Made by a program: the position numbers and the translations under genes. From Leptogorgia sarmentosa (Eukaryota), in assembly GCA_964658305.1 (NCBI GenBank), contig OZ210886.1:806001-870000 (forward strand): 64,000 nt of DNA, read 5' to 3'. Every line of letters begins with the position of its first letter. The stretch's first letter is position 1. The notes below the pieces were generated by a model. The model was not told the origin of the DNA, did no database searches, and saw only the letters and a program-made list of their open reading frames with translations. Positions 12,501-48,461 of the stretch are shown one piece after another.

Positions 12501-15500
12501 ATGTAGCATTTGTAATAGACGATGGTTGGGTGTATACTAACGACTGTTATCTCTTGTTTGAAACAGGGTGAATCTGGTCAACGTGGTGCGAAGGGTTCTC
12601 AGGGAGTGAGAGGGTCACAGGTAGTTTGTAGTCCAAGTTTCTTCAATTAATCAGTAGATATTGTTATCTGTAATCACTACTACCAGTAATAGTCTAAATC
12701 ATTTATTGCTTTCCATTTAGGGTCAAGCTGGACAAACTGGAGTTTCTGGACCACCTGGGACCCAGGTAAGTCCTCGCATTTGCTAAACAACGCTCTATGG
12801 ACGCAGGGGCCGCATAAGCTATTTAAAAGCACTAAAATTTTTTTACAGTCATGTTACTCTGCATGCATGAGTATGCGTCCACACCGGGCAGGCTGCAAAA
12901 TTAGCCTGGTCTCAGTGGGATTCGAACCCGCGACCTTTCGTTTGCTAGTCCAATGCTCTACAAACTGAGCTACGAGGTCAAGTCGGTCGAGGGTATGATA
13001 TTTCGGAACTCGCTAGTTCCTTCAATATCTGTCTTTTTAGTGCAAAGTTTCAAAGAAACTTTGCAGTATTGTGATGAGTGGCGAAAATTCACATCAGTCA
13101 TGTAGTCATGTAGTCATGTAGTCATGTAGTCATGTAGTCATGTAGTCATGTAGTCATGTAGTCATTCAGTCATTCATAGTGTAAACTCCGGGGGGAGCGT
13201 CCCAAATTCTCCTGACATGCGAAACTCCGTAGTTGACTGATATCCTTGGAATGTTTGAACAGAAATTATTCGATTGCAGTTATATATCGTTGCTCATCAT
13301 TATTTGCAGTTGTTCTCATTGATATGAAAGTTTGTTAGATGTGAAATGTGATCAAAGAAGCGCAGAAATACAGTACACAATGGCGGACGCCCCTCCGGAA
13401 TTTCAGTTTTTGCAAAAATTGCAACTCAGCACTTCTGGGGAATGAAATTACACAATATGGCGGACGCTAAGAGTCGGGCCGTGAATCAGTAATTCAGTAT
13501 GAATGTATGATGATAATATAATGTGGCCAACATGTTTGAATGCGTTATAAAGCAGTTATGAATCTAGAGATTTGAATTTATTATCATTATCAGTAGAAAA
13601 CTTGTATTTGTCATGGATAATTTAGTATAGTAACGCCGCCGTGCGTATTTATATTAAAAATTTAGTTGGCCGACATTGCGGGCAAACTAAGATGTGTAAC
13701 ACAGTAGAACTCGTCACATATTTTAGATTGGTTGATGATAGGCAACATATTTGCGAGCTTTCGCATTTATAGCTTTCGTGTTTGTTTTTTCCGTCTCCGA
13801 CTCGACAACACTGGTCGACGGCATCACTAAGCTTGGGCTGTTTGTTTGCCCGAAAATACCGGGGATTTACAGAATTTTCGATACTAAAAGAACTAAACCA
13901 CATATAGGCATAGAAAAGTAAATTTAACGTTGGCTGATACTGTGAATAAACTGGATATTTTATTAAGACGCAGAAGTAGCGTGCCACATTGTGATTTAAC
14001 TCATTTAAGATCATTTGTTCAGTACGATGTGTATATAATTTCAAAAAGGTCAGAGGTCAGAGATTTATCTGATTTGCTTTACACGCGCGCTGCTGCGATG
14101 GCAGTTGCTTCCAGACAATAAAATAGTTATTATTTTCTCGTATCACGTCAACAATGTTTCCTTAGTTCTCTTTTAAAAAATATGATTTTAATGCCTTCTA
14201 AGGCCTAGGTCAAACGTCGAACTTTTCATGTGCCGAACCTAATGTTAATGAGCCAAGTTCTTTGTTTGAGCTCATTTGCATTAGGTTCAGCGCATGAAAA
14301 GTTCGACGTTCGACCTAGACCTTAGAAACTTTGCACTATCCTTGGATCCCTAGTTCTAATAACGTATTATGTTCTTGCGGTTGTAGTACATGTGGACAGC
14401 AACCACAACATCATTGTTTTACAGTAGTTACAGTTTCCTAATTCTTAGTAACATATTATGATATATAGCTACCAGCAAAAAAAAGTGAGTGATATTTTGT
14501 CGCGCTGCGTTATTACTACTACCAGCATACTTTATGATAATCATGCACAATAAAAAATAACTACAAATACTCGCGAAGCATCCGGGTATAGTCGTAGATA
14601 GGAAGAGATCATGCTGAGTAACTCGTATACACAGTATATACTCCCAATGTACATTAGTATCATTGGTATGAGCAGTTGGGGTTGAATTGCCACGTTTAAG
14701 TTCAAGTTTAAATTTTTCTTAGGGTCCACCGGGTGCAAGTGGTGTGGAAGGTCAGCCTGGTAAGGCTGGTGACCCTGGCGAGAAGGGGGAAGTTGGGTTA
14801 GTTGGACGCCCAGGAGCCCAAGGTCGGGTTGGTGATCAAGGCTTGAAAGGCCCCAAAGGGTCCAAAGGTGAAACTGGTCTTGATGGTTTGACAGGTGTGG
14901 CTGGAGATAAAGGAGATAGGGTAAGATGTTGGAATAAAATATGGTACCATAGCTTGAAGCAAATTACCGTTATTGACGTTGACGTCTTGTCTAGTGTTAA
15001 CCATATACAATCGAATGAATGAACTGAAAGCCCCTGACGCCAGAACCGTGATAAAACTTCATTCACTGCATTCTGGAACCCTGCAACTTCATTTTAAATA
15101 AATTTCGGGAAAATATAGTTTATCGCCTTTCAGTAGTACACTTCAAAAATTAGTTATAATGCAAAACACGAATATATGAATATATAAAAATGACTACTAT
15201 TTTTTATTAGTAACATGCACCCCGTTTCTCATGAAAATTTTAATTTTTGAAATGTCTTTATGAAAATCTTTTCAGGGTGTGCTTGGAATTCCTGGTCCAA
15301 TTGGTTATCAAGGCAGCCCCGGTAATGCGGTAAGTTTTTTTTGCAAACAAGGCAAATTTGTTAAATTTTGTCCGCTGTACTGAAGTAGGTTATTTTGTAA
15401 CTTGATGTAAAGAGGTTTTTAACTAACTATAGGTTAGTTAGATAAATTCTAACCCCTATCCCATTCTTTGCCTTAAACATAGGGTCCCCCTGGTCCTCCA

Positions 15501-18500
15501 GGAACGGCAGGCTCACGCGGAGAGAGGGTGAGGTTCTTTTGCAGATGTTGTAAGAAAAGGAAGATCTTCAGTTACCCAATACACTCACACTTACATTAAG
15601 GAAACACACACACCGTAAAGATTGAGATTATCACTTGAAGTACAAACTGAGGTTATTTGGGCGCAATAATTGGGCCATCTCGTGAAATCCTAAATGTTTT
15701 GACAATTTCTAGGGTCGTAATGGACAAGCTGGTCTTCCAGGTCCTGTTGGATCAAAAGGAAATTTAGTAAGCTCAAATTTCGTTGCACGTGAATATTTTT
15801 AAACCCTCTTCTTTCTAGTTGAATGCTTTGGGATGAGGTGTGAATGTCCCCTGCCCGCAATATGTTTTAAAAGCCTTAGAATAATACATGGATTGCTGTG
15901 TACCAAGTCTGCAACGAAAATAAAAAGGTGGTCAAAAGGAAGGAACCTCGCGTATATATGCGAGTATACACACATTGAAATTCCTGCAATTGTCAATCAT
16001 CCTTAGTTTGTGAATTAATTATCGTGTTTTTTAAATTAAATCATTGAGAAATGTTCCGCGCCCTACTATTCTGCATGTCACATGTAATTTTCTTTCTAAT
16101 AGGGTTTACCTGGACCTGCAGGTGAACAGGGAGAACCTGGTATGGTTGGAAAGACTGTAAGTATCACCTCACACACATAAACATATAAGCTATATAATGC
16201 AATCCTAAACCTCATTCAAGTGTCCATGGACACTAGATTAAGTATAAAGTAATGTGGGGTATTGATAAAAAAATTTATTCTGACTGCACTCGCAACAGAG
16301 AATTACTTTTTCATTGCTGTACCAATCATCCATTTTAGACATTTAACCTGGTGAAATTTTTTTTTCTTCCCAGGGTCCAACAGGAAGGTCAGGACGACAA
16401 GGTGCATCTGGCCCAACAGGAGTAAAAGTAAGTTCAATTGCACTAATTTTCTTTTCGAAGTTTATTCGGTGTATCATGGTTGAAGTCCGTGGTTGAGTAT
16501 CGTGGTTGAAGTCCGTGGTTGAAGTACTTCAACCACGATACTCATGCGATTGATATTTGATATATATATATAAATAATATTGGTTCCAGCAACAGCAAAA
16601 GTTTTACACCTAGATAATGTACTAAATATCACCTTTATGTTACATAGTGGTAAATTATACTATTTCTCAAAATCAAATAGGGTGATCCAGGTCTTGAAGG
16701 ACCTCGAGGACGAGTTGGACCAACAGGACCCAAAGTTAGTGATCGAGTTTTTTACAATGTCTATGTTTGCATATTTACTCATGTTCAACTCAATCTGTTG
16801 CTCAATTTCCGGGAGTTTGGAATTGGTATCCCGTCTTCTAAATACAACTCAGGTGGGATAGTTTTGTTATGTGCTGTACCTGACCCGTGAAGTGGGCCAG
16901 CGAAAGTGATGGATTTCCACAGCACATGTAAATAAAACAACAAAGCACCTTGCCTGAATAATGGGAAAATTATAATAGACGATATCCCCTTATTAGTAAT
17001 TCGTAGCGCGTTGCATTATTGTTTCAGTGGTATCACTGATATTCAATGCCTCATTTATGTGCAGACCTGTGCAAGGCTCCTAGAAAGTCAAGTGTAGGAT
17101 GGCCATCAACAACATTTTTGCCAAATTATTGATTATATTCATTCAACTCTGTTATCTTGAGTATCAGCGATACCAGTAAAACCAGAATGCAACGCGCTCT
17201 GGATTACTAACAACGGGAGTCGTCTATTATAAAATATTTAAATATGTTAAATAATTGAAACAATATTGCATTATTGCCTCTATGTGTGTTCTACCGACTA
17301 CCAAGTTATCTCAATAAAAACTATTTTACATAAAAGGGTGATCAAGGACTTCGAGGACTTAAAGGACCTTCAGGACTTAAAGGAGCAAGGGTAATGCTAC
17401 TGAAACCATATTGATGTCAATTTGTGAAATATCAATTGTCTGATTTTGAGATACTAGTTTAATTGTAGTGTTTTAATATTTGAACTTCAAAAAAATCTTG
17501 ACAGCAAACGATAAATAAATACAGTTAAATATGCACAGGTTGTACGGTCCATACATTATCCACCATTGCATCAGGTGTTTTTCTTGTCTTCTCTAATTTG
17601 GCATGGTTGCTATTTTCACAGGGCAGAGATGGTAACGTTGGTCCAAACGGTCCGCGAGGTGCACGAGTAAGTATAAAAAATAAACGTGTTAATATTGTAT
17701 TCTTTTTTGTCATTTATAGATTGTTGAGTTATGACAGCTTGATAGAAGCATCTTTCGATATGCTGAATGTGATATAATTAATATTGGATTTAAATCCATT
17801 TTGCACTTGGCGAATTTGCTCGCGCAAACAGATAGTCCACTGCAAAAAGTTGGAATTATGTTTCCTACTTTTTTTTGCGACGTACTTTATCGCCAAGCAA
17901 TTACGTTGTTGAATTCTTGTTTTCGATAAGCCTTGTAGAGAACATTTAGGATCCAATCACCCTGCAATTAATTGTACTGTGTTAAGTGTAGCATTAATTG
18001 TTACAGCATGTATCAATTAAGAAGTATTTTTGTTCTAGGGTCCCCCAGGTGTTCCAGGCCAGAATGGTGTTGACGGAAAGCCTGGTAGTCAGGTAAGAGA
18101 AGAAAGACTTTAGAATTAAGTAGTATATTAAATTCAGGAGCAGGTGAGCGGCTGATACAAAGGCTTCTCTACGAATTCTGTATAACTTAACAAGTTCAAA
18201 CACCTTTAATAACGTCATATTGATTGTACTAGGGAGTTGGTGGAAATCCTGGTCCAGTTGGATCACCTGGTGTAGCTGGTCAAACTGGTCCTCAAGGTCA
18301 AGCTGGTCCCATTGGGGACAAGGGAGAACAGGTTAGATCAAAATGATTGCTTTACTTAATTTAGGTAAATAGTGACTGTGCGTCTGTGATCTGGTTTTAA
18401 CATTGAAAGCAAAACCATGATCCCGGCCTGTTTCGTGTTTAAAAGAGCTAAAATTAAAAAGAATATTATTTCAAGCGTCCGCAAGGTTATATTATGAGGG

Positions 18501-21500
18501 AGCCATAACTTAAATTTAATTAATATTGTATGTTTCAGTTCATACAAGTAATGCCAAGCACAAACATAGTTATAGAAGAGCGTAGCTAATATTAAAAGTA
18601 TAAAGTTTTTCGTTGTAAAACAATACATGCTGATGTGTGCCGACAAACTAAATCTATGTATGTTCAACTAAAATGTATCAGAGTAAGTTTCTACATAACT
18701 TAGCTGATAAGTTGATTGTAATTATATTTAATTTACCGCTAGGGTGTCGTTGGTGTTCCTGGTGAAGTTGGTCCTGATGGTCCTAAAGGAGAGCAGGTTA
18801 GTATTAACTATTTTTTGGTGTTCTCGACTCTGTGATGAACGAATAATTTTGTTTATCAGAAAATTTTGAAAGGCTGCTGTTAAGAACCTACTATATCAAT
18901 CAGACTAAGTGCTTTAGTTTTGTTTTTCGCGGTGTTTAAAAAAACGGTTTTCTGAGACTTAGTTTGTTTAGTATCATTAAAACATACAGCATGAGATGAA
19001 GTTGTTCAAGGTCTAATGTTCTGTTAATTCTGTAGGGTGACACAGGTGCTCCTGGTGAGCAAGGAAACCCTGGAAACGATGGTATCAACGTACGTTTTTT
19101 CTTTTTGTAAAAGTAATAGGAATTTTCTATTCCTTTATAGTATATGTACTGTATAAATGCTAAAAATAAATGTATTTTTTCCATTTACGTATTAAGGGAG
19201 CTGATGGAGAACCAGGTCTGCCTGGTGACGCTGGCCGTCAGGGAGCCCAGGTTCGTATTTTTCACATCTTGCTCTTGTCAGTTATTTTAACTTCATGCAC
19301 CGTAAATCCTTTGTATAAGACGTTGAAAGGTTCTTTAAATGCTGATATACAATCTACACCAATGCGTTTAATTTGTGCAATTTACCAAGAACTGCCGCTA
19401 TCTGAAGAATGAAAATACAAATTTTTCCTGACAGTCCTGCGAACTTCGATATGCTAGAACGTCAAACTATTTGTTGAGTTGCTTAGCGATGTGAGAGCTA
19501 ATTCTTATGCAGTTAATGCTACGTAAATGAGAATTGTGTTTAATTTGTATCCCGTTCTTTATTCCCTTTAGGGTGAACGTGGTGAACAAGGTATGATTGG
19601 CCTAACAGGACCACCTGGGAATAAAGTAAGTTTATCTTCATTATAGTAATCCATGTTCAACATTGGAACTTTTTACCAGTGCATTAGAGTGAAGAGTTTG
19701 TCGGATCTCTTGATTGAACGTTCAAGGGCTATAGATCTCTGTGGAATTTCTTGCATTCGTCACTCATTGCACTATTTGTGCCATGCAAATACTAGTTCCG
19801 TAAATGTTCTATTTTCCATCTTCGTTTAAATTTTACTGGTACCTAAACGACTGCAACATCTGTATTCTTCGTAGGGTTACCGGGGACAACAGGGTGAGCC
19901 AGGCAAGAGAGGAAAGCTGGTGAGTGGTGGTTGTATTTTTGTACCAATCATTTCCATTTAAATTTGGACAGATGAGAAGAAGAGATTTTTGATTTGAATG
20001 ATCTTTGATGCCATTTGCTATGGATAAACAAAATAGGTCGTAAATACATCAATCCATTCATTTCTATTAAATTCTATTTCATTATTTTACAAGGGAGCTG
20101 CAGGAGAACCTGGCGAAGACGGTGCACGCGGACATCCAGTACGAAATTTAAATTTGCTTTAATAAAACGATCACTGCTTGAATAGACTAATTATTTCAAT
20201 ATATAGTCAGTGTATAAGTGATGAAAAATGATCTCAAAATACATACCTCAACACTTGCACACTCTACTTGAGTGCTACAACAAAGTGCGGGTTTTTAAAA
20301 AGTCAAATTATCATTTACGTCGTTACTGTAACATTTGATGTACTTGGATTGTTTGTATTCATGGCACCTTGAGAGGGGAGGGGAAGGGAGGGAGAGTAAG
20401 GTAGAGTAAAGGTAGGCCTAGAATTAGTCTTCACCAGAATTGTCACCATATTTCTGTAGGGTCAACCTGGAAGACCTGGTCCAATCGGTGAAGGTGGAGC
20501 TGATGGATTACCTGTGAGTATTTCGTTTCTTATCAATATATACAGATATTGTATTACATTACCTATCAGACACACTTTTGAATTAAGGAAATTGACTAGC
20601 ACAGCTCGAAAGAGCATCGTGAATTTGGTAAAATTGTGAAGTTTGGTTTGGTTCATTATTAAGGGAATTGAAGGCCCTGCAGGAGCGCCTGGTGGAATGG
20701 GACTGCGTGGTGTTGGGGGTCTTCCTGGCGCGCCTGGTATTCCTGGTACTAATGGTGAAAAGGGTGGCAAGGTATGGTCACAATCTTTTTATAACCTATT
20801 ATTCATGTGTAATGCCCAGTGGTAATGCCTGGCAAACGTATTTTTTGTAGCGAGGTAAATATATTCATTATTATAAATAATTTGTTGTATTTCTTGATAT
20901 TCTATATAATGTGTATTGGTTATTAATGTTCATACCGGTGTTTAGGGAGATAAAGGTAATGTTGGTTTTGATGGCCAGCCTGGTCAAGATGGCCGACCTG
21001 TAAGTACCTATCGATAAACTAATTTTTTCCATTGTTTCTTGTGGTCAGTCAAACGAGGTCACAAGGGACGTGAGCTTTGCAATATTTCAAATGACCCATT
21101 AGTTCTTCACAGAAGTGCTCAAAAACATCAAAGTGAAGGAGAATAATACCATCATAATTGATAAATCTACGAAAAGAAAAAAATTGAGATGATACGATTT
21201 TTATACTTGTATTGAAATAAACCACAGTTTAAAATTCAGTGAAATTACATCATTATCTCAGGTTTGATGGATGACTGCGAACGACAATTTCTGCACGGTA
21301 AAGTCATTATAACATTTGTTACTTTAGGGAAGAAATGGTAATCCTGGTGCTCAGGGACCTATTGGTCCTCCAGGTTTAAAGGTGTGTCATAATCATTTTG
21401 CTGGTTTGATGTAGTCAACATTTTTTTCTTAACTTTTCTTACCTTTTGCTTATAGGGAAACCGAGGAGATGTCGGAAGCCGCGGTCCTCATGGCAAACCT

Positions 21501-24500
21501 GGGGAACGTGTAAGTTTAGTATCAGTAATAGGTACCAATTGCACGAACCGGACTTTGTTTTGTGCTGTTCCTGTCGTTTCAGTCATTATTATCATTGCCC
21601 TGTGTTGTTTAGGGTCCCCAAGGTAATCAAGGAGCAACAGGAGAACAGGGTGAAATTGGAGCACCAGTACGTTTCTTATTTTACTGGATTGTTTTTGAAC
21701 TCGTACATTCAGGTTGTGCATGCAGTGGAAGCATGGCTTACTAAAATGTTGAGCAAGTAAAAATTGATGAAAATGACATAATGAGTTGACGAGTCATAGG
21801 CTTGAATGATGCCTTTAAAACCACTTTATAAAGAAACATCTATTTTTATCGATGTTGTTTCGTCGTAACGCGTTTTTTTAAAGCAGTCAAGCATGATTGA
21901 TTTTCTACGGAAACAATTCTGCCTGGATGCGAAATGTTTTATTTTAAATGCGATCCCAACTATACCATATATCGGTTGGCTGTGGTTTTTTCCCATAGCA
22001 TACGCAATTTTCGTAGGTAGTCCTATTCTAAAGTAAGCAGTTAACATGCGATTTTTGATTCACAGGGACAACAAGGACCAAGCGGCGCAAAGGGTAGCCG
22101 AGGAGGAAAAGGGAGTAAGGTGAGGCGATGAAATACGTTGGTTTGATATCACACGTGTAAATAGATAAAATCACCACAATTCAGCAGTTCAAATTAGGTT
22201 CCCCCCGGTGCATAATTAGTTTTGGCAAAATTGTAGACCTGGTCTAAATTTATCCTTCCAGAAGTATAAAATAATGAGGCGTAAAATTGCAACCCGCACA
22301 TTCCCTCGCTCCCAAGGATCGACGCCCGAGTTTTGAAGGTGTGTAAAAATCGCTTTATGTTTCAGGGTGAAAGAGGTTTGAAAGGTGAAACAGGAATGGC
22401 GGGGGCTCCCGGTGGACCGGTAAGGAAATTGATGTTGTGGATTTGTTGCGAATTGATTTGTTCCGTGTCTATAGTAGACGCACCTCTTGTATAAAAACGG
22501 CATGTACGTCATACCTACTACAAATGTACGATACATCTTGATCAGTTTTGTTGTGCGAAATGATCTTTACGTGATATTGGTATTTTAGGGTGAACAAGGA
22601 GATATGGGTGATGCTGGTGATCCCGGAGCTAGTGGTATAGCTGTAAGTCCACAATTGTCTTGTTAAGGCCCTTTACCTGTCGTATCGCATGATTCAAGCT
22701 AATTCCGTGTCAGTCACACAAATTTTTGTACAACTGGCCTCTGTAAAAATACATACCGTGTTGGGTATTTTTTTTTCAGGGAGGCCCAGGTCTTCAAGGA
22801 ATTCGAGGAGAAACGGGAACAGTCGGACCTGTGGTGAGCACATATACTCAGGGATAATGAGTTTATCTGGAGTGAAAAATCGAAGGAGCTATAAAACATT
22901 AAACCAGTATTCAACTTAGTCATCTGCGCGATCAACATAGGCGGGCGATAGCCTTGAGACCGCGCAGAGCACAGAGCTTAATTGACGTCTTATCGTTCCT
23001 ACGATTTCCACCTTTCTATTTTAGTGTAATAGGGTTTATAGGCTTTACGTCATAGGAAATCAAAAAGGTTTTTCTGGGACGCCCGGTTTAACGAGAAAAC
23101 TGAAATACCAGAAAGCGTGTTGGTAAAACCTGGACGTGTTGGGCTTTTATTTTTGTAGTATGGTATAAAGACAGCGATGGATTATTATGAATTGCTTATT
23201 ATGAGGAACTTCAGCTTAGAAAATGACCGATGTTTCTGATGTACAGCCAAATTTTCGTTTTGTAGGGACCACCTGGATTACTTGGTACTGCAGGAGAAGA
23301 TGGACTACCTGGAGATAAGGCAAGATCCTGAATCAGTTTTGCAAGATCAGTTTTACGTTATAAATAACTTTGGAAATTCCTGCACTATAGGGCTATCGTG
23401 GTCAACGTGGACCCGATGGTAAGCCTGGACCACCTGGTCCTCCTGGTAATCGTGGTTTTGATGGTGTTCCTGGTCATAATGGTGAAACTGGTGAAACAGT
23501 ACGTTACCTGCATCTGAGAAGTGTGAAGCAAAGGTGGTTGATATAGTGTAGCAAATGTGATAATCTCTTTTGTTCTAGGGTGACGCTGGCCCTCCTGGTG
23601 AGAAAGGTCTTAAAGGCCAAAAGGGCTCCTTGGTTAGTATGGGACTATGAACAAACTATGAAACGCGCAATGGAATTGAACTCACTTTCAACACACTGTC
23701 TTCCTAGGGACTTCCAGGACAACAGGGACCACCAGGAGCACCGGGAAAAGCTGGACCGAAGGTACATTTTGAATATTTTTTGTTAATGATTTGTTACATG
23801 ATAAGCATTTTGACTAATTGTGTGATTGGTCAATTTGAGGTCCGGATCGATTTTGCCTTAATGACTTCTCCTGCCGTCGTGGGGCATTGCGATATTTTTA
23901 ATGCCCTGAAAACAAAACAGAAAAAATCCGACTGGACTTTTTTAACAGAGATGTAAATTGCTGTATTTCACTGTATCTCAGACCTCGCGGATAATAAGTA
24001 TTATTACTGTCGAAGTAGAATCAAAAACCTCTGCCCTGGCCTTACCACGTGTAGTTTTAACTTTAGTTTGTGAAGAATTATTAAAAATATTGCTCGTGCA
24101 GACTTAGTTGTAAGCTACAGTGAGTTGGGTTTCACCTCAAGTGACATTTATCATAATCGTCAATTTGATTCATGATCAATAACTATAGGGAGCAGTCGGT
24201 GATAGCGGAGAGGCTGGAAGAACTGGAGAGCAAGGGGATAGGGTACGTTGTTCTTCACGTGATTTGTTATGCTCTTTGCATATGCGCATCTTCATATAGT
24301 CTGTATGAAAACTCATATTTGGAATACAGGAAAATAGATCTGTTGACCAAAATTGTCATCATTCTCCTAAATTAATGGCCGATACTAAATGACCTTCATG
24401 ACAAGTAATAGTGTAAAAGGCGCGCACAAATTTACGTACCCATGAATTTGGTCACGTGAAACTCCCCTTTCTCCAACAACAAAAAACGAGCGTTTTAACC

Positions 24501-27500
24501 GAAAGGGTTTGACGATATTAAATGTCATTAGGGATATGATGGCAAAAGAGGCGATAAAGGTTCAAGTGGTGATAATGGAGAAGCTGTAAGTCCATAATTT
24601 GTTTTAACATTTTTGACATCCATTCAACTTCGCTTAATGTTTGAATATGAATGATATTAGTGCTTCTTATTTGCCAATGTATTTCTAATGTGAACTACTT
24701 ATAATGAAATTCTTTTGACTTATTATGTTTATACATATAGGGTGCCGATGGTGTTGATAGTACGGAAGCTGGTGAACAAGGTGAACAAGGAATACAGGTA
24801 AGCAAACATTTTTACCCCTAGTCGATAATAACAATCTTATTGGCTTGTTATCGCTTCGCTTTATCTAACACCTGGACGTTCAATAACAAAATAATATATT
24901 GGAGGTAAGCAAGCAATTGTAATACAAAGTAAATTACCATACATTATACAATATTGGGAATAAAATTTTACTTTGTCGATTAAACGATCATTACAGAATT
25001 TTCATACCTGTTCTATTTCGTGAAATATACTTCTAATAACATTTTATACGTAAACCAGAATATATTGAAATGGGTTCACAAATTATTGGCTACGGCTCTG
25101 TAGAGACCATAGAAAAACAAATAATTTCGTTATTGTTTTCAAGGGCCCTGATGGCGAAGATGGCGCTCCAGGAAATGCCGGTCCACCGGGCCCTCCAGGC
25201 CCTCAAGGTTTACAAGGTAGTCCCGGAGATGATGGAAATCCTGGTAACCTAGTACGTATATGTATCGACTATATTTGCATGTATGTAAAACTTTATTTAA
25301 ACACGCTGGTCTCGGACAACTATATGAATGCACCTGATTTTCGCGAGGGGGCTATAAGATAAGTATAGTATGAATATTTGCAAATTATCAGCATATTTAC
25401 AAGAAGGAAAAAACCCCAAAAGAAACGGCCGATATACAGGAAAACCCACAAGAGAATGCATTAAAAACTGAAAGCTTAATCCAGCGACAATCATATTATT
25501 TGCTTTATCTACCTTTTAAATGAACTTATGGATTCAGCTCGCTTAAGCTCTCGTGGAAGATTATTCCACGAGATAGGGAGGGTAGTACGAAAACTCACTG
25601 AGTGTTTTTCACAGGGTATTCCTGGTATGAAAGGATCAAAGGGACAACCTGGGTTTGTTGGAGAACCGGTAAGAAACCTTTTCATTCAAATAAAGTATAC
25701 TATCAATAAAGATATAAATTTGTGAGCGAAGTATGCAATGGGCATTGTGCATTTTTCTGTAATGAAAGAAGTGGAATGATTGTTTGGTCAGGGTTGATAT
25801 TTTATATTTCAGGGAGATTCAGGTACACTCGGTGAGACTGGAGTTGATGGTGACGATGGTGCAAAAGGACCAAAAGGTGATATCGGTGCACCTGGATTAC
25901 GTGGACAACCTGGTACACCTGTAAGTAATATTTACAGCATGAGGCGGCTGTGTTATGAGAGAAAGTGAGATTACAAGAAATTATGTAATGATTAAATATA
26001 GCCCTATATAGTGCAGTGGTGATTTAAACAAGGTATACAACAATATCTATAAAATCAATTTTGTAGGGTAACCAAGGTAAAACTGGCAATCCTGGTTATC
26101 CTGGGTCATTGGGAAAACCGGTAAGAATTTGAATTAATTTCATTCCCCTATTTCATAGAAATCGTGTGAAATAGAATATCCGGTACAATCTGGCCCGTTT
26201 CATACGTCGAATTTTGGTCGCATCGAATGCAATTCAAACAATAGATAATGAAGTTAGTATCTCATTATTCATTGTTTGAATTGCATTCGATGCGACCAAA
26301 ATTCGACGTATGAAACGGGCCTTAGTCACAGGCCTTAGTCCGACGAAGGGCCTTTGCATGCTCAAAACGTCGCGTGAATCTTATCCTTACGGTAGTGAAT
26401 GGGAATTTTTCATCCTCCATTGCCACAGTCATATTGAAGTATTGTCTATAACGTCAATCCCGTTCTGCCTTTGGCAGTGCAACAAAGGTGGCACCTGAAC
26501 TTCAATAAGACCACGGAACGACTGAAGGCATGTTTCCACCTCAAATTTTGAAATTTAGGCAACTAAAATTGGACATTTAAAGCATATAGTTAGAACACCA
26601 TTGGAATTAATCTCTAAACTCTACGATTTCACAATACTTTTGCCTCGTGGTATTAATTATAATTTTCATTTTTTTAAGGGCAGCGCAGGTCCAAGTGGTA
26701 AAACCGGTCCTCCTGGATCCCCAGGCAATGTGGTAAGGCTACATTACCTTACTGCTGTATATTGTACGAGTTTTAATTGTTCAACATTTCCCTTAAAATA
26801 TAGCCTGACGTAAGTTGTGTCGTAATGAAATATGAGATGCACGCTTGATCAGGCATTGAAATTAGGAAATTTTACAAGGAATTAATCTACGTGTCGTGCA
26901 GGAGTGGAGAATTACTAATAATGCCGCTGTATTCACAAGAGTTTCACGAATTTTAATCGGCCATCAAAATGGCGTGCTTTCGCGATATATGAGCAAGCCA
27001 ATACAAAACCCCCACCCTGACACCAACAACATAATATTAATTAAAACTTTCGGTTGCTCACATATCGAGGAAGTACTAATAACAACGCGAAAACACGAAA
27101 AGTCTTGATTCAACACGAAAACCTTGCCTTGATTGGAGAATAAAATCCTTCACACATTTCAAGACAAAATCATAATTTTTCCTCATTTATAATTTACGTT
27201 AAGAATGTTTTGTGATGTTTAGGGACCCCAAGGTCAACGTGGACCACCCGGTCAGGATGGACCTTCAGGAAGAAATGGTGGCACTGGACCTCCCGTTAGT
27301 AATTACTTTGATTTGAGTTATTACTTATTACTATAATTGTGATCATATTGCTTAATGCAGCGCATTATAGATGGGCACTCGGAATCAATAAGCAATATTG
27401 TAAAAATAAGAAAATATGGAAAAATCATAAACGTTTTCCAAAAAGATTAAGAAGATATTTGCATGGGTACTTTTGCTTAAGTCATTTAATATTGTGTACG

Positions 27501-36540: not shown

Positions 36541-37564
36541 CTAGATGAAATGTATAGGAAACTATAAAGGCTGGTTTGTGCAGAACTTACCTACCGTACG
36601 TACCTTCGTACGCACTGTGTGATATTTCCAGAATAATTTAATGATAAATTAAGCGCTATAATAAGAGGTCTTTTACATAATTTTACATGGTCGACTTATT
36701 GTCTATATTTATATATGTATCTATATTTATATAACAAAAATTTTAATTATTTGGTCGGAAGGGATGATCTATTTAGGGCGTAGTAAAACACTTCAAAAGC
36801 TGTGAAGCAACGAAGGAGAAATTGTATATTTCCATCACAAATGGTGTTTCCTAAGACAAATGGACAATCTGATTTTTCCTACTAAAATGTTATAGTGGGC
36901 AGTGTAAGTCCTCCACGGAATTTCAAGGGATGAAGTTTTGCTCTTTTCTGTTTCAATTATGGCTACATAGACGTCATAATGTGGCGAGAACATCAGTAAA
37001 CCCCTCGGGTAAATGGCGTGCAGGCCGTTGCTCTTACGACATAATGACGTCATACTATGATATATATATACTTTAATAACTTTATAACTTCCCTCTAATT
37101 ATGCACAAGTATTTTCAATTGGTCCTCAAACTTGTTCCCGTGCTTGCAAAAATGAGCACGATATCTTGTACATTTAAAAACCAGTTTAAATTCTTCGCTT
37201 TAATTCAAAATTCGTTTTGGGTTGTCTTTCTTATGTTGTATAGATATACTACTTAAGTAAGATAATGAATTACTGGACGGTTACAAATAGTTAAAGACAT
37301 TTACAATTGTCTGAAAAAATAATTGTTAAAGAGTTAGGTATAGGTGTGACAAATCTTGACACAGTCGAATATTCGAAGAAATAACCCACACATTCTGGAA
37401 CCTCACTGGAACAAAGACGGGATTGACATCACGTTTCATCAAATATTTTTGGTTGTTTAAAATTCCTGTCATTCCTAAAGTACTATTTATAGGTTTTCTA
37501 TATATGATATAGTTATCTAAATTTAAATGGTGTATAGTATTAATAATAAATAATGTAATAGTAT

Positions 37565-37726
37565 ACAAATAATGAATGTTTATGAGTGCAATGGTAAGAA
37601 TATTTTCATAAGGTGAAAGATGGAATGTTCTATTCAACGAGGCGAAGCCGAGTTGAATGGAACATTCCATCTTTCACCGAATGAAAATATTCTTTCCATT
37701 GCACGAAATAAACATTCATTATTTGT
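37565..37726. repeat. Long palindrome with central GAGGCGAAGCCGAG loop (interspersed hairpin repeat)
   Basis: acaaataatgaatgtttat...gatggaatgttctattcaac-gaggcgaagccga-gttgaatggaacattccatc...ataaacattcattatttgt. Confidence 0.8.
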
Positions 37727-39355
37727 TTTATATGACACCAAAATAAATCATTGACACGAAATGCCCGCCATTTTGCTTCGTTAGTTTACTAAATAAAATT
37801 CCATCGCTCACATGGTCGCGCCACGTTCATGGATTCGCCATTAAATGCGTGCGATAATAACATTTTGAGTGATTGAAAATAATTAAAACCACCGTGCAAT
37901 GGAAAGAAATATTTGCACGGTTCCATTGCACGATCATGAAAATGGAATTTCTATTTTATATCACGTGATCGTAAATAACCAATTAAATCGCGTTAATTTA
38001 ACCAAGTGTTATATAATAGCTAATAATAATGATGACTATATACACTGTTGGACAATTTTCTCTCATGACTGAAACTGTGTTCAAGAAAATAATTTTAACC
38101 AAAAGACACCCATCAGGAAAGCTTAACTGATATCGAAATATGATTTTCAAATGTGGTTATTTATAATATATTTAACAATAATTGAATATAATACATAAAA
38201 TATTTATATTGAGGAAACCACGATAGCCAGGAAAACCGTTCTACTGTATATAGCAGCACGCATAGAGAAGTTACTATTGCTTCGTTTCGACGATTTCACT
38301 TCCTTAAGGCGTAAGGTTCACATGTCAAAGTGAAAGATTTATTGTGAAGCATTTATAAAAGTATTATTATATTGATCATGCACATATATCATAACAAAGC
38401 AAAATCGTGTGTGGCTGAACTTAAAGTGAATATAACCGAATCAGTGGTATTGTATGCATACAGTATTTCATTGGTTTAAAAAGGCCAACATTCAACTGGC
38501 ATTCAATATGTGGAAGCATAAATTTTATGTGTCTTTCTCATACTTTGAAACAAAATTATACTGGAGATCGCGGCATTTCTACTTGAAGAATTAAACTATG
38601 CTATCCAGGTTTTTTTAAACATAAAATATTTGTCTTCTTTTTTGTTAAAAAGAACAAAAACCACGACAGGACGTGCATGTATTGCATTTTTTCAAGTAAT
38701 ACATTTCAAATCACAAAGCAAATAATAGTATATATATATATGTAGTCATGGTCAAAGAAAATTTGTTTTTGTATCTTTGAAGCCTTACCATGCAAGAACC
38801 ACGGTACGAAATATCGAAGTTCTAGTTTCAAATTCTCAACTCATTGCACGATTGGCACATTTTCATATAAGGTTCAATGGTTCATAGCACTGTTCATAGT
38901 TCTTATTGCCCACTTTTCACGCTAGGGATTGTTTTGTTTCAAAATATGCACCGAACATCTAAATTATGCGAGATTACTCCTTACTTATTCAGCAAGAGAC
39001 AATTAATTCTTTAGCGCGCTGTCGTTAGCGGATGTAATTTAAAGGTTTTGTATCTCAAGCATTTCCGAGTTTGGGGCTATAAATGCCAACGGGAATTTTC
39101 CATTCAAACACAATATCACCAAAAAGCTGTTTATTATTACAATCTCAAATAGTTTAATATTCATTTGGTATTCTTTTTTATTTCTTCATAGTTCATTTAG
39201 ATACAGGTTTTTGATATTGAAATTCGAGTATACAAAAATACTTTACAATAATATTTATATATATTATATATACAGATTTTTAATATTATACAAATAAAGG
39301 ATGTTATGACTACATATATGTACAGTACTGTAGGTGTAATTTATTATCACTTTAG

Positions 39356-40114
39356 TTATTCCATGTGTTCGTAGAAAAAATTGCGCAATTCTCTTTTTAA
39401 TATTCCAGGCAATGGCAGGAGGTCTATAGAGTGCGTATTGCTATGCGAAACCCTAATATTTTTGATAATTGAGTTCATAGCAATATCTTGTAAAGATTTC
39501 GCACGGTGTCTGGAGACAAGTTTACCCATAATGTTATACTTTTCCGTGTAGATCCTTTCCCACTCCTCCAGATTCGTTTTTTGGATATCATTAAGGTCCG
39601 AGAGATCGTCATAATCAGAACGCAATGAATTTACATCAAAAGATAAAGTCGCAAATGCGCGACTAGCATCTCGTCCCGCTAACATTTTATAGCATCCACC
39701 GGAATCAAATTGCTTCTTATCTTTGGTTACATCAAATATCTTGCCGTTTAACGCGATATAGATCGTTCCATTTGAGCCATTATAACAATTCAGTTCAGAC
39801 AGCGAATACTCTCTTAATTCAAACAATGATGATGTCTCGATCATTCGGGATGTTTCTCTACCTTGCGGTTCCTGTTTCTTCAAGATATTCTTCCAGTAAA
39901 CACAACACGCTGTAAAACATAGGCCAAATACGAGTAGAAAATCGAACAATCCTTCCCGTATATCACGATCTTTTGTCTGATTTTCACCCGTAAGTATTGT
40001 GGTTTGAATGCTTATCCCGAAGCTTAGCAACATGGATGTTAGCCATGTGATGTCCATGTTATTCATTTGTTTGCCAATCACACTACTCGACTTTATATAC
40101 ATACCACATCCCAT
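39356..40114 (-). CDS. Intronless PGRMC-like membrane-associated progesterone receptor (MAPR) family protein with a C-terminal SOCS box, up to 252 aa
   Basis: TM segment GLFDFLLVFGLCFTACCVYW. Cytochrome-b5-like domain YSLSELNCYNG..IYIALNGKIFDVT..YKMLAGRDASRAFAT..YDDLSDL..LEEWERIYTEKYNIMGKL. Tail KSLQDIAMNSI..IDLLPLPGILKREL. The true start may be a downstream Met. Confidence 0.9.
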   Translation of the reverse strand: MGCGMYIKSSSVIGKQMNNMDITWLTSMLLSFGISIQTTILTGENQTKDRDIREGLFDFLLVFGLCFTACCVYWKNILKKQEPQGRETSRMIETSSLFELREYSLSELNCYNGSNGTIYIALNGKIFDVTKDKKQFDSGGCYKMLAGRDASRAFATLSFDVNSLRSDYDDLSDLNDIQKTNLEEWERIYTEKYNIMGKLVSRHRAKSLQDIAMNSIIKNIRVSHSNTHSIDLLPLPGILKRELRNFFYEHME

Positions 40115-42702
40115 ATTTTCTTTTTATTTACGTTTACGTTTTTACAATAACACTACTTGGTAAATTGTGGCGATTATAAACTTGATATGGTCCAGGCGAC
40201 CAGTGTCTCCAATGGCAATGACTCTATGAGTTTTCTCTTACTGCTTGTCGATATATATTGTCGACCGCCTGCTGTCAAGCTTCAGTGCCGCAAACAGGTG
40301 GGAGACCGGAAGAGACAAACGTGTGTTTTGTCTTCTTTTGTTTGCTCCTGCTGCTTTGCTTCTTGTGTTCTCGGCTATCCCTTGGTCGTGTGAGGTTATA
40401 TTAAGATCCCACAATCTTTTCTTATTGTGTTATTTTGGGAACGAAAAGAGTTATTTCTGAACCGATATGTATGACTGCATGTACGTGTCGTATTCTCTAT
40501 TAGAGCTTTGCTCTTTTACCGAGCCGCAATCCTTTATGTCGTTAACGCATCACTATTGCGATGTGTTTATATAATTATATCGGTTCCGTACGTACTTAGG
40601 AAAGTCAGAATACTGAGTATAGATAATACATTGTTGGCGTTATGGTTGGCTGTTGTCATAGAAACAACACGAATACAAGCATCAGTATTACTGTGAAGAG
40701 GAATCAGTAATAAGACACAGATATAATTGATATGTGTATTATCTTTGAGTGAAGAAGCCAATATTTTCGAGACAGCAGATAAGAAGGAGGTTGTACTTTA
40801 TGAAATGTGGCTGCCAGTCATGCTGGATTAACAGGATTAACAAGCAAAAAAATTGTATGAGGCAGAATAGTTGGAAGTCTTTGGAACAAAGCGAGTGCAT
40901 TCTTGGAATACTAAAAAGTTGGAATAAAAAGAGTGCCGATACTTACATCCGGAGTCTTAAGACCTGGGCAAAGAATCGTCTCATTATGGAATAAAGAGCT
41001 TGTTCTAGCGCCAATATACTGGAGGAACTTTATACAAAGCGAACATAATGAATTATTCTTATAGTGTCTATGTTTGGATAAGCTAAGTGGTAGGTAGTAT
41101 GAAAGCAATGTTGGGCTGGGTTATAACAGCTGAGTTGAGCTAGAAATTTCTGGCCTAGTGCTTAGAGTTGTACTGTGCACATTATTGTACATACTGTAAA
41201 TTCTTTGCTTATGTAGCGGGCATAAATTGAAATTTAGAGGCAAATTCTGTGAGCATGTTCTTTTTTCTTTCGTTTCTCACCCTTTACATCATATTGAAAT
41301 AATGCGTATCAAACAATTGAGTAACAGAATGCAGAAAAATGTCACTTTTCGTGACACTAAACACGTGAAAAAAAGAGGAATATATGTTAAATAGTGCATG
41401 CATCAAGTATTCATGAACGAAAGGATTGCTACTCCAACCCCGTTCCCTCCCGTTCCAAAGCTTTTTCCTCTTAGCTATATGGCTGCTCCTGTTTGATAAT
41501 CATCTCTTGGCTGATTGTAGATTATTTGGAAGTCTCGGGAACCTGTACGTTCTAGGTTCTACCATTACCTGAACGATACAATAAGATCTGACGTTTCGAC
41601 CAAAGGTCCTTTGTCGAGAATTAGGAAACGAAGGGCCTATGCTCTGAACGTCGAATCTGCTTACTGTATCGTTTGGGTAGTGAGCAGAAGTTTTGCTGGT
41701 TGTGGATGTTGTTATCTCATTACATCAGCTAGCAAATATTTTTTATTACTGTATATATGTAATATGTTTAGGGGCATCTATTCTAATAATCAATACTCAT
41801 AAGCTGAAATTGCAGATAGAGTCTGCAACCGTGTGCTGATCCTCGTTCCCTTTATGCTGTTCATAAAACAAAAAACGTCAGGAAGGTATTGGCGGCATAG
41901 GCCATCATATACACATGGAAGAAACATGAAGTCTTCATGAACATAAGATATATCGTGAGGTCGTCGATGGTCAAGCGGTAAAAAACACATCCGCTACTTG
42001 ACAATACACACTTTGATTCGCACACCCTTTCCGTTCCTCACGTGGAATAAACCTTCGGTGCACTTGTAACGATGCCAATTACAGAGCTTCAGAGAGGTAA
42101 ACAGGGCTGGAGTTGCACGCCATCCATAATTCTCGAAAACAAATCATTAAATACATTTCATGGCTTTTGTTGAGATTGTTGATAGGATTTGTAACCTAAT
42201 TGGTCGCTATCCTGTTTTCCAGAACTAGTTCCTAGTCGTCTATATGATGTTATTGATCTCGTCTAACAAGTCTTCATTTTTTTCCAATAAAACCCGCAGT
42301 AAACGACTGTTCACGTGATACGATTATATATTATATTCTTTACGATACTACACGTGGCTAGCCGGTAAACACGACTGTCTTTGGGGTTGGGACTTGGGGG
42401 ACTTGGGGGACTTGGGGGAGGGGAAGAAGACAGAAGTTCTTTTCTCGCTCTCCTTCGCACCCCATTACAAGAACGTCTGTTTGCAGGCTACCACGTGGCC
42501 GGAACGAACGACCTATACCAGGCACTTGGTTCCTTGCGCGCGCCCACCTGATCTATATATATATTTGTCTGGATTCTTTCTTAATCTGGGTACGAGGCTG
42601 TGTATGCATGCACACCAGCACACCTACCGAGACCGAGGCCTCAAGGAAGGTTGTGAAGCACTGAGACTAGAACGAAAATGGATGTGAATATGGAACTTGA
42701 GA

Positions 42703-43848: not shown

Positions 43849-46800
43849 ATGGCGAGCAAAACAGGTAGAGCTGTGTCGTCGAAAGGAAGACTTATTGCTG
43901 TGATTGGAGACGAAGTTAGTGGTATTTTCGTTATTATTGTTACTAGTATGAGATTAGAAAGGTACTGAGATCATGTCATTTATACAGGATACGTGCACTG
44001 GCTTTCTCCTGGGAGGAATTGGTGAAATTAATGATAAAAGACAGAAAAACTTTTTTGTTGTAACTAAAGGTAGGAATGACATATTTTCTCTATTAATAAT
44101 TTACTTTCTGAAGTCGCATTTTGATCAATAACTTTCTTTTACGCTTACTGTATTTAACTGAGCCAGCAGCAGTGTCCCAGACAATGGTGTGTTTCTCAAT
44201 TATAAAGGTCATGTGATTAAACAAAATGTGTTCATCAGGGTCGTTTACCCATTAACATGAAATGGAGCTCAAAATTTGGATTGAAATTCCTGTCTAGGGC
44301 AGGCATGTTTCATTTACCAGAAGACCAGAAGCTTTAAAAATTGAAAATCTCAGTAGGCAGTATTATAAATTCCAGCCTTCACAAAGAGCCTGTAACTAGT
44401 GTAGCCTGTAACTAGTGTAGCCTGTAATGTGATAATACTTTTCTGTATATATTATGTAATCAAAAGTATAGTGCAAAATTTGCAAACTGCATATTATTGT
44501 ATTTACCAAATTTTACAATATTTTGCAAAGAAACCTCACAATTTTAGTTTAGGATGCCTGTTAACCCAGTTATGCTAATGATTAGTAACTAATTCCAGTT
44601 CCCATTTTACCCCTTCAGGACCCTCAAAACGCGTCAGTACTGAGCGACTCTTTTCAGCTTCAGATGAACCATTGATTTGTAAAATTTTGTATGATTTTTT
44701 GCTAAACATAAACACAGAAAAAGTTGCAGAAAGTATTCAGTTATAAATGAAATTGAAACGCCATGAGTGGACAGATTATCAATGACGTACATGTATTCAA
44801 ATTTTGCACATAGGTTCTAAAGTGCAACTAATATACCATACCAATAGATATGTAATTTTAATTGGAACATATACAATGTGTAATATCCTAAAACGAGCAA
44901 TTTCTCAACTATCAGGCTACGGCTATACCAAGAACAGCGACATTTCCGTCCTTTGTAATTCTGACAGTTAACGTGTGGTTTCCAGGCCTTACTCCTGTAG
45001 CCACAGGTACCACTACTGTCTGGCGTTGGCGAGTCTTAGGATATATACGTTTCCTTGCATCACTGTCCAACCAAACCTCAAATTCTCCGCTGTCACGACT
45101 GCTACGAGTAAACATGTTGACTGATGAAACCGAGGGTGAGACATCTGGAACCTCAAATAAAAATGTAATTTCAGAATCTTTCGTCTTTCCACGCCAGCAA
45201 GTAAAACAATCAGTCCGATGTACCTCACCACGATAGCTGGGGCTTATTATTGGTATGTCTTCCGTGTGATCGAATCCTTTTCTTTTCAAAATAGAAACTT
45301 TTAGAGTGTTCCTTGTCTTAAATTTTCTATCTGGTGCAAGTCCCGTCCAACATAGAGCATTTTTGATGATTCTGAATGGGGGTTTAATGTACTTCGGCGG
45401 AGGCAAGGGTTCGGACTTTGATACATTGGGTGATGTGTAACAATCATTGGTAGTTCTGTGTGTGACGACGTGGCTGTCATTGAGTAGTCTTCTTATTGAT
45501 TTCGTAATCACTTGAATGATCATGAAGGCGGCTTGAGCATGCCCTACTAAACTCATATGATACTTATCTTTGGCTTGATGTTTAACCGCCTTCGCTGTTA
45601 TCTGGAAATGCCCCGACCTGAATTCACAAGCAAGATTTCGCAGATTAAATGTAGTGATATTATAAAGATCAGTTACAAGTGATTGGCCAAGATCCATTAA
45701 ATTAAAACAACCACAACTTCGATTCCTCGTAAGAAAGAAGTTTACAAACATTACTGCATAGTGATTTGGTTCGCTCAGTAATTGTCGTGTAAATTGTTCT
45801 AATGGCAAGCTTTCATTCATATGGTCTAAATTCTTTAATTTTACTGCTACTCCGTCATTGACTGATGAATCTAGTATAACGAGGTCAACATTATTATGAT
45901 CAAGGTAAACCTTATAGCAAAACTGATAGTAGCTGCTTGATGTTCCACCAATACCAACAATTTTCACATTTAAACTCGATCCAGTCACTGGTGTGATGAC
46001 ACTTTTCCACCAGCCTTCTAATATATTAGGAAATCGTCCTTTTATACTATTTTCATCCTCCTGAAGACCCCCGCCTGCGGTGTTAGATCCCCCGTAAACA
46101 ACCACATTAACGGTCTCTCCGTGTAGAACTTTCCTTGCGGTCCTGTCCAACCGTTTGTTATTCTCATATTTAATGACAGACCAAAAATTGCTTTTTTTCA
46201 GATACAAGTCGTTTAATGATGAGAAGCGTTTTTGTAACGGCCATTCAGATAACACATCTTTATTAAGCACCTGGTCAAGTAATTTCATCACAGTAGTTTC
46301 GTTACATTTCAAGGGCGTTTTATTTTCTGTATCTAAATGGCTTGTTTTTGACATTTGAGTAACAACAAAAACGGAGATTAGGAGTATTGCTTGATATAAC
46401 ATTGTCTTGGCCATGGTTTCTGTTTGTGTTTTTAATAATCTTTCTTTAGGGAGAACTTAAATGATCATCTAGCAACATGTGGGCAATTGTTCATGCTCAT
46501 CTGCCATACTGCTGGGATAATGCCGCACCCGTTGCTAATCAATATCGACAAATCACCGAATATAATAAATAACTGTTGTAATTAATTTTTTCATTGTTTA
46601 ATAATAAAAAGTGGCTTAACATACAATGCCACCTGAATTTAACACCGTAAAAACCGTACTTAAAAACAATACGTTTTAGCGTTTGGATTTATAGGATAGA
46701 ACAAAATTATTTTGAACTGTCTTATCAACTCCTATTTCATTTCTCTTTGGGTCAGGTTATTGTTCTAATCATCACCTGCATTTGTATCGTTGTTCGAATT

Positions 46801-48327: not shown

Positions 48328-48461
48328 CTTCAGTAACGAACAAGAACAGCAGGGAGGATAATCTCACTACCCCGACGAAGGCCCTTCGGTCGAAACGTCG
48401 AATCTGTTTTATCGTTTAGGTAGTGAGATTATCCTTCCTGCTCTTGGTCGTTATCCTGAAG
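48328..48461 (+). repeat. Hairpin repeat enclosing a minimal hammerhead-like motif (Penelope/retrozyme-like)
   Basis: Arms cttcagtaacgaacaagaacagcagggaggataatctcactacc / ggtagtgagattatccttcctgctcttggtcgttatcctgaag surround CCGACGA-aggcc-cttc-ggtc-GAAACGTC. Confidence 0.5.

Follow-up and report, generated by a model that had tools for sequence, protein, structure and literature searches.

An anthozoan PGRMC paralog with a SOCS-box-type tail: a candidate membrane-anchored Cul5 substrate receptor

The fusion locus in Leptogorgia sarmentosa

We describe a PGRMC-SOCS fusion gene in a 64,000-nucleotide stretch of Leptogorgia sarmentosa contig OZ210886.1, referred to here as the window and numbered from its first letter. 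An uninterrupted, single-exon open reading frame (ORF) of 252 amino acids on the minus strand encodes a predicted transmembrane helix, a cytochrome-b5-like domain of the PGRMC type, and a 47-residue SOCS-type tail (residues 206-252, starting at 39499), in the arrangement that the first-pass annotation had read from this locus. By tblastn the window holds one PGRMC locus, and the nearest named relative of its product is Dendronephthya gigantea XP_028393201.1, at 75% identity. The features of the gene are as follows.

39356..40114, minus strand: ORF of the PGRMC-SOCS fusion (P0001), 252 amino acids; full-length relatives exist and RNA-library contigs of relatives span it unspliced
39995..40051, minus strand: weak N-terminal hydrophobic segment, residues 22-40 (Kyte-Doolittle 1.27), seen in the octocoral group
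39896..39952, minus strand: predicted transmembrane helix, residues 55-73 (Kyte-Doolittle mean 1.99), followed by basic residues
39512..39817, minus strand: MAPR (PGRMC-type) cytochrome-b5-like domain, residues 100-201 (Pfam, phmmer, fold match)
39689..39691, minus strand: Tyr142, equivalent of the PGRMC1 axial heme ligand Tyr113 (alignment to 4x8y)
39467..39496, minus strand: predicted BC box, residues 207-216, with Ala replacing the usual Cys (published consensus; L208 invariant in 50/50 aligned members)
39386..39427, minus strand: predicted Cul5-box region, residues 230-243, with LPLP at 233-236 (consensus; PLP invariant in 50/50)
39359..39382, minus strand: C-terminal extension, residues 245-252, strongly conserved in octocoral-group alignments
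39321..40407, minus strand (strand and ends are not given by the contigs): likely transcript body, from single RNA-library contigs of related species

The N-terminal transmembrane helix is assigned by hydropathy only; net charge around it is -1 before and +2 after, and basic residues also follow the helix in 2/3 relatives checked. Residues 22-40 may form either a second membrane segment or an amphipathic helix. By Kyte-Doolittle analysis, a second peak above 1.2 also occurs in P0010, P0017, and P0021, and none like it was found in the hexacoral-type proteins tested. Six hexacoral-type relatives outside the stony corals (P0022, P0023, P0095, P0100, P0102, and P0334) begin with Met-Gly-Lys-Cys, which we take to recall N-terminal lipidation motifs, and P0096 begins with Met-Asn-Lys.

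Expression of the fused gene is supported in relatives. RNA-library contigs of related species from three studies, at ~88-92% identity, carry domain and tail in one unspliced piece (X17, 39321-40407; X16, 39321-40290; X18, 39333-40122; X20, 39321-40116), and X15, from a run guessed to be RNA, extends over the tail and into the domain. These contigs have a depth of 15-32, versus about 3-8 for non-repeat flanking contigs, although transcription and strand are not provable from contigs. We reject a spliced-out tail, given that these contigs are contiguous through domain and tail. A further run contig, X2, spans the whole region without a difference and possibly derives from the same source DNA. 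In a single pair, the window gene against L001 (86% identical protein), dN/dS is 0.27 for the tail (Fisher p 0.007) and 0.11 for the MAPR domain, indicating that the tail is under purifying selection.

Other parts of the window hold features of their own. Nested inverted repeats at 37554-38016 (58-nt arms at 90%, 30-nt arms at 87%) match very many short RNA-run contigs and are probably a multi-copy MITE-like element; related short palindromic repeats at 41584-41662 and 48345-48445 are matched by multi-copy contigs too. On the minus strand, an uninterrupted 500-residue ORF (44912-46414) has a hydrophobic N-terminus, a best Pfam match to CE2_N at E 0.087, no exact match in the protein collection, and a Gly-Gly-Ser motif that presumably recalls SGNH hydrolases. 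Two plus-strand ORF pieces with von Willebrand A domains (5952-7377; E 2.5e-5 and 1.9e-16) are probably exons of one gene. A tRNA-Ala(AGC) lies at 12906-12980 on the minus strand (Rfam, ARAGORN), and GC skew is raised, up to 0.16, over ~10 kb within 14000-26000.

The SOCS-type tail

We assembled 440 proteins by word-based and profile searches and cluster look-ups. A profile of the tail, built from 50 of the 95 proteins that carry it, scores those 95/440 higher than 20 bits and leaves the range from 5 to 20 bits empty. The published BC-box consensus is (S,T,P)LXXX(C,S,A)XXX-hydrophobic, followed by an LP-hydrophobic-P Cul5 box (PMC3355856). The window tail fits both boxes, with LPLP 16 residues after the BC box, as do 2/100,000 shuffled tails. 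The strict published pattern for the two boxes is present in 46/95 fused and 0/345 other proteins, and a relaxed BC-plus-Cul-box pattern in 94/95 and 0/345.

Pfam matches Cyt-b5 at E 4.6e-8 in the window protein and scores the SOCS box named by the first-pass annotation (SOCS_box, PF07525) at 12.9 bits for the whole protein and 16.8 for the tail alone, short of the 23.5 cut-off. Because the window protein falls below this cut-off, the SOCS call rests on the motif and on orthologs. The curated cut-off is reached by 17/56 fused relatives scanned (3/23, 14/28, and 0/5 by batch), the figure for octocoral-group relatives P0002-P0021 being 2/20, and 28/50 aligned family members match PF07525 at E<=0.001. 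Pfam gave a SOCS match in 0/6 ordinary PGRMCs scanned and none at E<=0.2 in the anemone proteins P0100, P0102, and P0103. Taken alone, the low score of the window protein would favor a motif arisen by chance, read-through of a pseudogene, or an assembly error; we reject these as very improbable, given 95 proteins with the tail, the X2 contig without a difference, RNA-library contigs from three studies, and dN/dS below 1.

Conservation within the family is concentrated in the two boxes. L208, P234, L235, and P236 are invariant in 50/50 rows of the family alignment, and L233 is kept in 49/50. When the two main groups are compared, identity reaches 0.30 for the BC box and 0.42 for the Cul box, as against 0.08 for the spacer that separates them. 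With box residues invariant and the spacer 8% identical, selection acts on the motif rather than on the tail as a whole. Every non-octocoral row (31/31) carries the BC-box Cys, in whose place the octocoral-group rows have Ala, Ser, or Thr (19/19). Many SOCS boxes have Tyr or Phe at the place of residue 242, which is Glu in the window protein. Behind the Cul5 box, the final 8 residues (39359-39382, minus strand) hardly vary within the octocoral group, and hexacoral-type members lack them.

We modeled residues 95-252 with AlphaFold from 98 sequences (mean pLDDT 85), setting aside a model from 22 sequences (mean pLDDT 50). The tail is predicted to form three helices (construct positions 114-128, 133-138, and 143-156; block pLDDT 69-85). 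Fold searches with this model, which comprised domain and tail together, listed b5/MAPR chains and, for the 45-residue helical tail, generic helical rows at Z 4.5 or less, with no SOCS-box chain among the matches listed. The best non-b5 PDB sequence matches of the family profiles include ASB7, SOCS3, and SOCS1, all weak (E 0.1-1.5); a search with the window tail alone reached no PDB chain at E<=10. In the ESM Atlas, the tail had no usable match, and the whole protein fell with ordinary PGRMC clusters at 0.80-0.81. A donor for the SOCS box was not found in these searches, ASB7 being a recurring, non-significant PDB match. On the consensus fit and the orthologs that pass the PF07525 cut-off, we are highly confident that the tail is a SOCS-box homolog.

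Descent from a SOCS box does not by itself specify the cullin. In octocorals at least, the tail could bind Elongin BC only, Cul2, or another partner through the C-terminal extension. The weak Pfam scores of the window protein and of its octocoral-group relatives (2/20 passing) point this way, as do the replaced BC-box Cys and extra conserved extension in that group and the unmatched P0100, P0102, and P0103; the Cul2 box also partly resembles the Cul5 box (PMC3355856). However, the box-defining residues are kept in all lineages, Ala and Ser are allowed at the BC-box Cys position, and the fourth-place Pro of LP-hydrophobic-P favors Cul5 (PMC3355856). We consider a tail without Cul5 recruitment unlikely. 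In our reading, Elongin BC binding is probable, and recruitment of Cul5 itself is favored with somewhat less confidence.

Distribution of the fusion and its heme pocket

Fused proteins occur in octocorals, stony corals, and anemones, and every named organism that has one is anthozoan: Dendronephthya, Oculina, Montipora, Stylophora, Actinia, and Nematostella (XP_032222929.1). A search of 1.84 billion representatives gave 5,975 matches; among the best 150, 7 match through the tail, all of the PGRMC-SOCS family, and the remaining 143 end by profile position 206. Matches in Hydra and Clytia are ordinary PGRMCs. The fusion is known from Anthozoa, and absence elsewhere is not proven. In databases, fused proteins are labeled 'MAPR component 1-like' or 'vem-1-like', some with precomputed Pfam matches for both domains. 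Dendronephthya has a fused protein as well as an ordinary PGRMC of 181 residues, and the window protein is 42% identical to the ordinary protein versus 75% to the fused one; ordinary copies are also found in Xenia and Paramuricea.

Fused proteins form one group, set apart from ordinary PGRMC, in a tree of the MAPR domain without the tail. This unrooted tree of 44 rows, to which cnidarian ordinary PGRMCs were added and from which P0049, P0047, P0050, P0051, and redundant rows were omitted, divides 22 fused from 22 ordinary proteins across one 98/99 branch, with 1 change. An earlier 68-row tree gave 2 changes, because it placed P0049, a plant protein on a long branch, within the fused group at weak support. 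A recent, species-level event is rejected, given fused relatives across octocorals and hexacorals; the simplest reading is a single origin at or before the octocoral-hexacoral split. By these relationships among sequences, the PGRMC-SOCS fusion is an old, pan-anthozoan PGRMC paralog.

Gene structure bears on how the fusion arose. Of 70 loci matched by ordinary PGRMC (several redundant), 17 are split at one shared position; those inspected have GT on the donor side, and 3 of the 17 have a second split. No such break interrupts the fused gene in the window, L001, or L004. Its junction lies ~10 codons past the second PGRMC intron position, and we reject fusion at a known PGRMC intron position, the junction being at neither. 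The missing introns are consistent with retroposition, as had been suggested for this locus, or with intron loss, by comparison with these loci. The neighboring 500-codon ORF is likewise uninterrupted.

The domain itself is of MAPR type, with the fold of PGRMC1 rather than that of classical b5. Residues 103-202 match PGRMC1 (4x8y) at E 1.2e-21 by phmmer, whereas classical b5 matches at 0.01 or worse; the AlphaFold model aligns to 4x8y over 108 residues (Z 19.1, rmsd 1.7), compared with Z 8.3 or less for classical b5. Identity to human PGRMC1 4x8y is 41-42%. Alignment to this structure bears out the residue mapping made by eye in the first-pass annotation: Y142, D149, K192/Y193, F136, and S158 correspond to PGRMC1 Y113, D120, K163/Y164, Y107, and C129, the roles of Y107, Y113, C129, K163, and Y164 being those described for PGRMC1 (PMC4802085). 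The window protein keeps 3/4 of the heme-pocket residues Y107/Y113/K163/Y164, Y107 being Phe, and the pocket is not conserved family-wide.

We counted these residues in the 50-member fused-family alignment (19 octocoral-group rows and 31 others). The axial Tyr, equivalent to Y113, is present in 19/19 octocoral-group and 4/31 other rows, and the Y113, K163, and Y164 equivalents are all kept in 19/19 octocoral-group rows and in 4/4 rows of the P0022 group (P0022, P0023, P0095, P0098). Stony-coral, Actinia, and allied rows have the axial Tyr in 0/27, with Phe in 21, Asp in 3, and Val, Leu, and Ile in 1 each. By subgroup, the stony-coral rows have Tyr in 0/21 and Phe in 18, and the 6 other rows have no Tyr, with Phe in 3 and Asp in 3; the Actinia and Nematostella proteins carry Asp. 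All 21 stony-coral-group rows also replace Y107, and their K163 equivalent is Arg in 12, Met in 8, and Val in 1. The stony-coral group (P0025, P0075-P0094) thus bears naturally, in its 18/21 Phe rows, the Tyr113-to-Phe substitution of the human PGRMC1 heme-ligation laboratory mutant. Separately, in our own alignment, residue 168 (39611-39613, minus strand), equivalent to the PGRMC1 phospho-site Y139, is Tyr in 19/19 octocoral-group and 0/31 other fused rows.

These counts weigh on the earlier proposal that the fusion degrades its partners in a heme- or sterol-dependent way. In a ligand-gated ligase of this kind, heme or sterol in the MAPR pocket would switch substrate capture, and clients would be destroyed according to heme or sterol level. 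Retention of Y113, K163, and Y164 in all octocoral-group and P0022-group rows and the low dN/dS of the b5 domain (0.11) agree with it, as does the heme-driven dimerization and EGFR binding of PGRMC1 (PMC4802085), and PCMTD1 sets a precedent as a cofactor-dependent CRL5 receptor (PMC12590147). Against it, the axial Tyr is lost in 27/31 non-octocoral rows that retain the SOCS motif, the stony-coral group also loses Y107 and K163, and heme is not needed for PGRMC1-P450 binding (PMC8591507). Findings on the mutant differ: Y113F PGRMC1 was heme-unresponsive and lost dimer-dependent binding (PMC4802085), and full-length Y113F still bound heme and P450s (PMC8591507), so Phe members need not be heme-free. 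The proposal is weakened, and we regard ligand gating as rather unlikely. The window protein and other octocoral members probably still bind heme, and axial ligation is likely not the conserved switch. On either finding, conservation across anthozoans falls on the SOCS motif and the MAPR core and not on the ligation of iron.

Candidate function and relation to known systems

We propose a working membrane-anchored CRL5 substrate receptor acting on PGRMC-type clients, and judge the chances of this proposal to be evenly balanced. The transmembrane helix would anchor the protein in one of the cell's internal membranes, probably that of the ER, and leave both domains on the cytosolic side; the BC box would bind Elongin C/B, and LPLP would select Cul5-Rbx2. 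The b5 domain of PGRMC1, a type I membrane protein, faces the cytosol (PMC8591507), and this topology, together with the basic residues after the helix, predicts that the SOCS box lies in the cytosol with Elongin BC and Cul5. SOCS-box proteins join an N-terminal recognition domain to Cul5-Rbx2, and the SOCS boxes of SOCS1 and SOCS3 illustrate that Cul5 can be bound weakly (PMC3355856, PMC4812663). The lysine-rich C-terminus of ordinary PGRMC (P0361, P0365) is gone in the fusion, so that ER retention is not assured, and we infer an ER location less firmly than the first-pass annotation implied.

The transmembrane-MAPR module would bind PGRMC-type clients, the most plausible being cytochromes P450 and further redox enzymes of the ER. 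Ubiquitination and turnover of these clients would invert the stabilizing role of mammalian PGRMC1; heme could tune the octocoral members. In mouse liver, PGRMC1 binds and stabilizes >13 P450s, its authors suggest that it may shield ubiquitination sites on them, and it binds P450s with Y113F or without heme (PMC8591507). We infer P450 binding by carry-over from yeast and mammalian PGRMC, and by this analogy P450s are tentative candidates among the substrates. A different target may be the fusion itself or ordinary PGRMC: the fused protein would pair with and remove the ordinary protein, or would act as a short-lived competitor for clients with a half-life set by Elongin BC/Cul5. Both paralogs coexist in Dendronephthya, and PGRMC1 forms heme-mediated dimers in vitro and, in cells, associates with the endogenous protein (PMC4802085). 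Yet heme-stacked pairing needs Y113 (PMC4802085), and most hexacoral-type members are without it; we regard such self-directed control as improbable. An antagonistic anthozoan pair, in which the ordinary copy stabilizes ER P450s and a fused integral-membrane CRL5 receptor destroys them under heme or sterol gating in octocorals, would supply a ligand-sensing E3 for sterol and terpenoid metabolism; in full, this scheme is quite unlikely.

The candidate receptor combines traits of two known classes. Like PGRMC1 and PGRMC2 (MAPR family; yeast Dap1, worm VEM-1), it has an N-terminal transmembrane helix and a MAPR-type b5 domain, and the window protein keeps the PGRMC1 heme residues Y113/K163/Y164. 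Unlike them, it ends in a SOCS-type tail where they have an acidic one with a Y180 motif and a basic end. It is also an intronless paralog in its own right, has lost the axial Tyr in most hexacoral-type members, and is predicted to destabilize clients rather than stabilize them. With SOCS-box CRL5 receptors (SOCS/CIS, ASB, SPSB, WSB, Rab40, MUF1) it shares a folded recognition domain that is followed at the C-terminus by a BC box and an LPLP Cul5 box. That domain is SH2, ankyrin, SPRY, WD40, LRR, or GTPase in those receptors (PMC3355856, PMC4812663) and MAPR in the fusion, whose ligase binding is predicted. The passages on SOCS-box receptors in these two reviews mention no b5/MAPR domain and no receptor with its own transmembrane helix. 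ASB11 (ER-associated, acting on ribophorin 1) and Rab40 (Golgi) are SOCS-box ligases for internal-membrane proteins, but with ankyrin or GTPase domains and no PGRMC module (PMC4812663).

PCMTD1 offers a further comparison, in that the fusion, too, would pair a housekeeping module with a CRL5 role. PCMTD1 has a methyltransferase-like fold, and we know of no transmembrane helix in it. It reuses a housekeeping cofactor-binding fold as a CRL5 receptor and binds substrate when AdoMet-loaded, a cofactor dependence that is demonstrated for PCMTD1 (PMC12590147) but doubtful for the fusion.

No description of a PGRMC-SOCS fusion or of a membrane MAPR CRL5 receptor was found in the literature searched, in which subscription papers are thinly covered, in keeping with the first-pass remark that the architecture is not known from characterized MAPR proteins. 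In a coral paper (PMC12630909), both terms are present in unrelated table rows. The main text of a MAPR evolution survey (10.1101/737684) uses SOCS 0 times; paralogs were removed there, and its supplements may list such sequences. The portion of PMC6604198 searched also uses SOCS 0 times, and a table in it appears to count two PGRMC1 genes in the Nematostella row, the column meaning being inferred.

If the SOCS box works, the fusion would represent a type of CRL5 receptor that we have not found described, an integral-membrane protein with a MAPR recognition module, and the Nematostella ortholog XP_032222929.1 makes it testable in that animal. It would also represent a natural conversion of a client stabilizer into a degrader by a ~40-residue motif, retained ever since octocorals and hexacorals parted. 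The change of the laboratory mutant Y113F occurs naturally in stony-coral members, so the family bears on the question of whether client binding by PGRMC needs heme, and the clients of the fused proteins could show which PGRMC clients are ancient.
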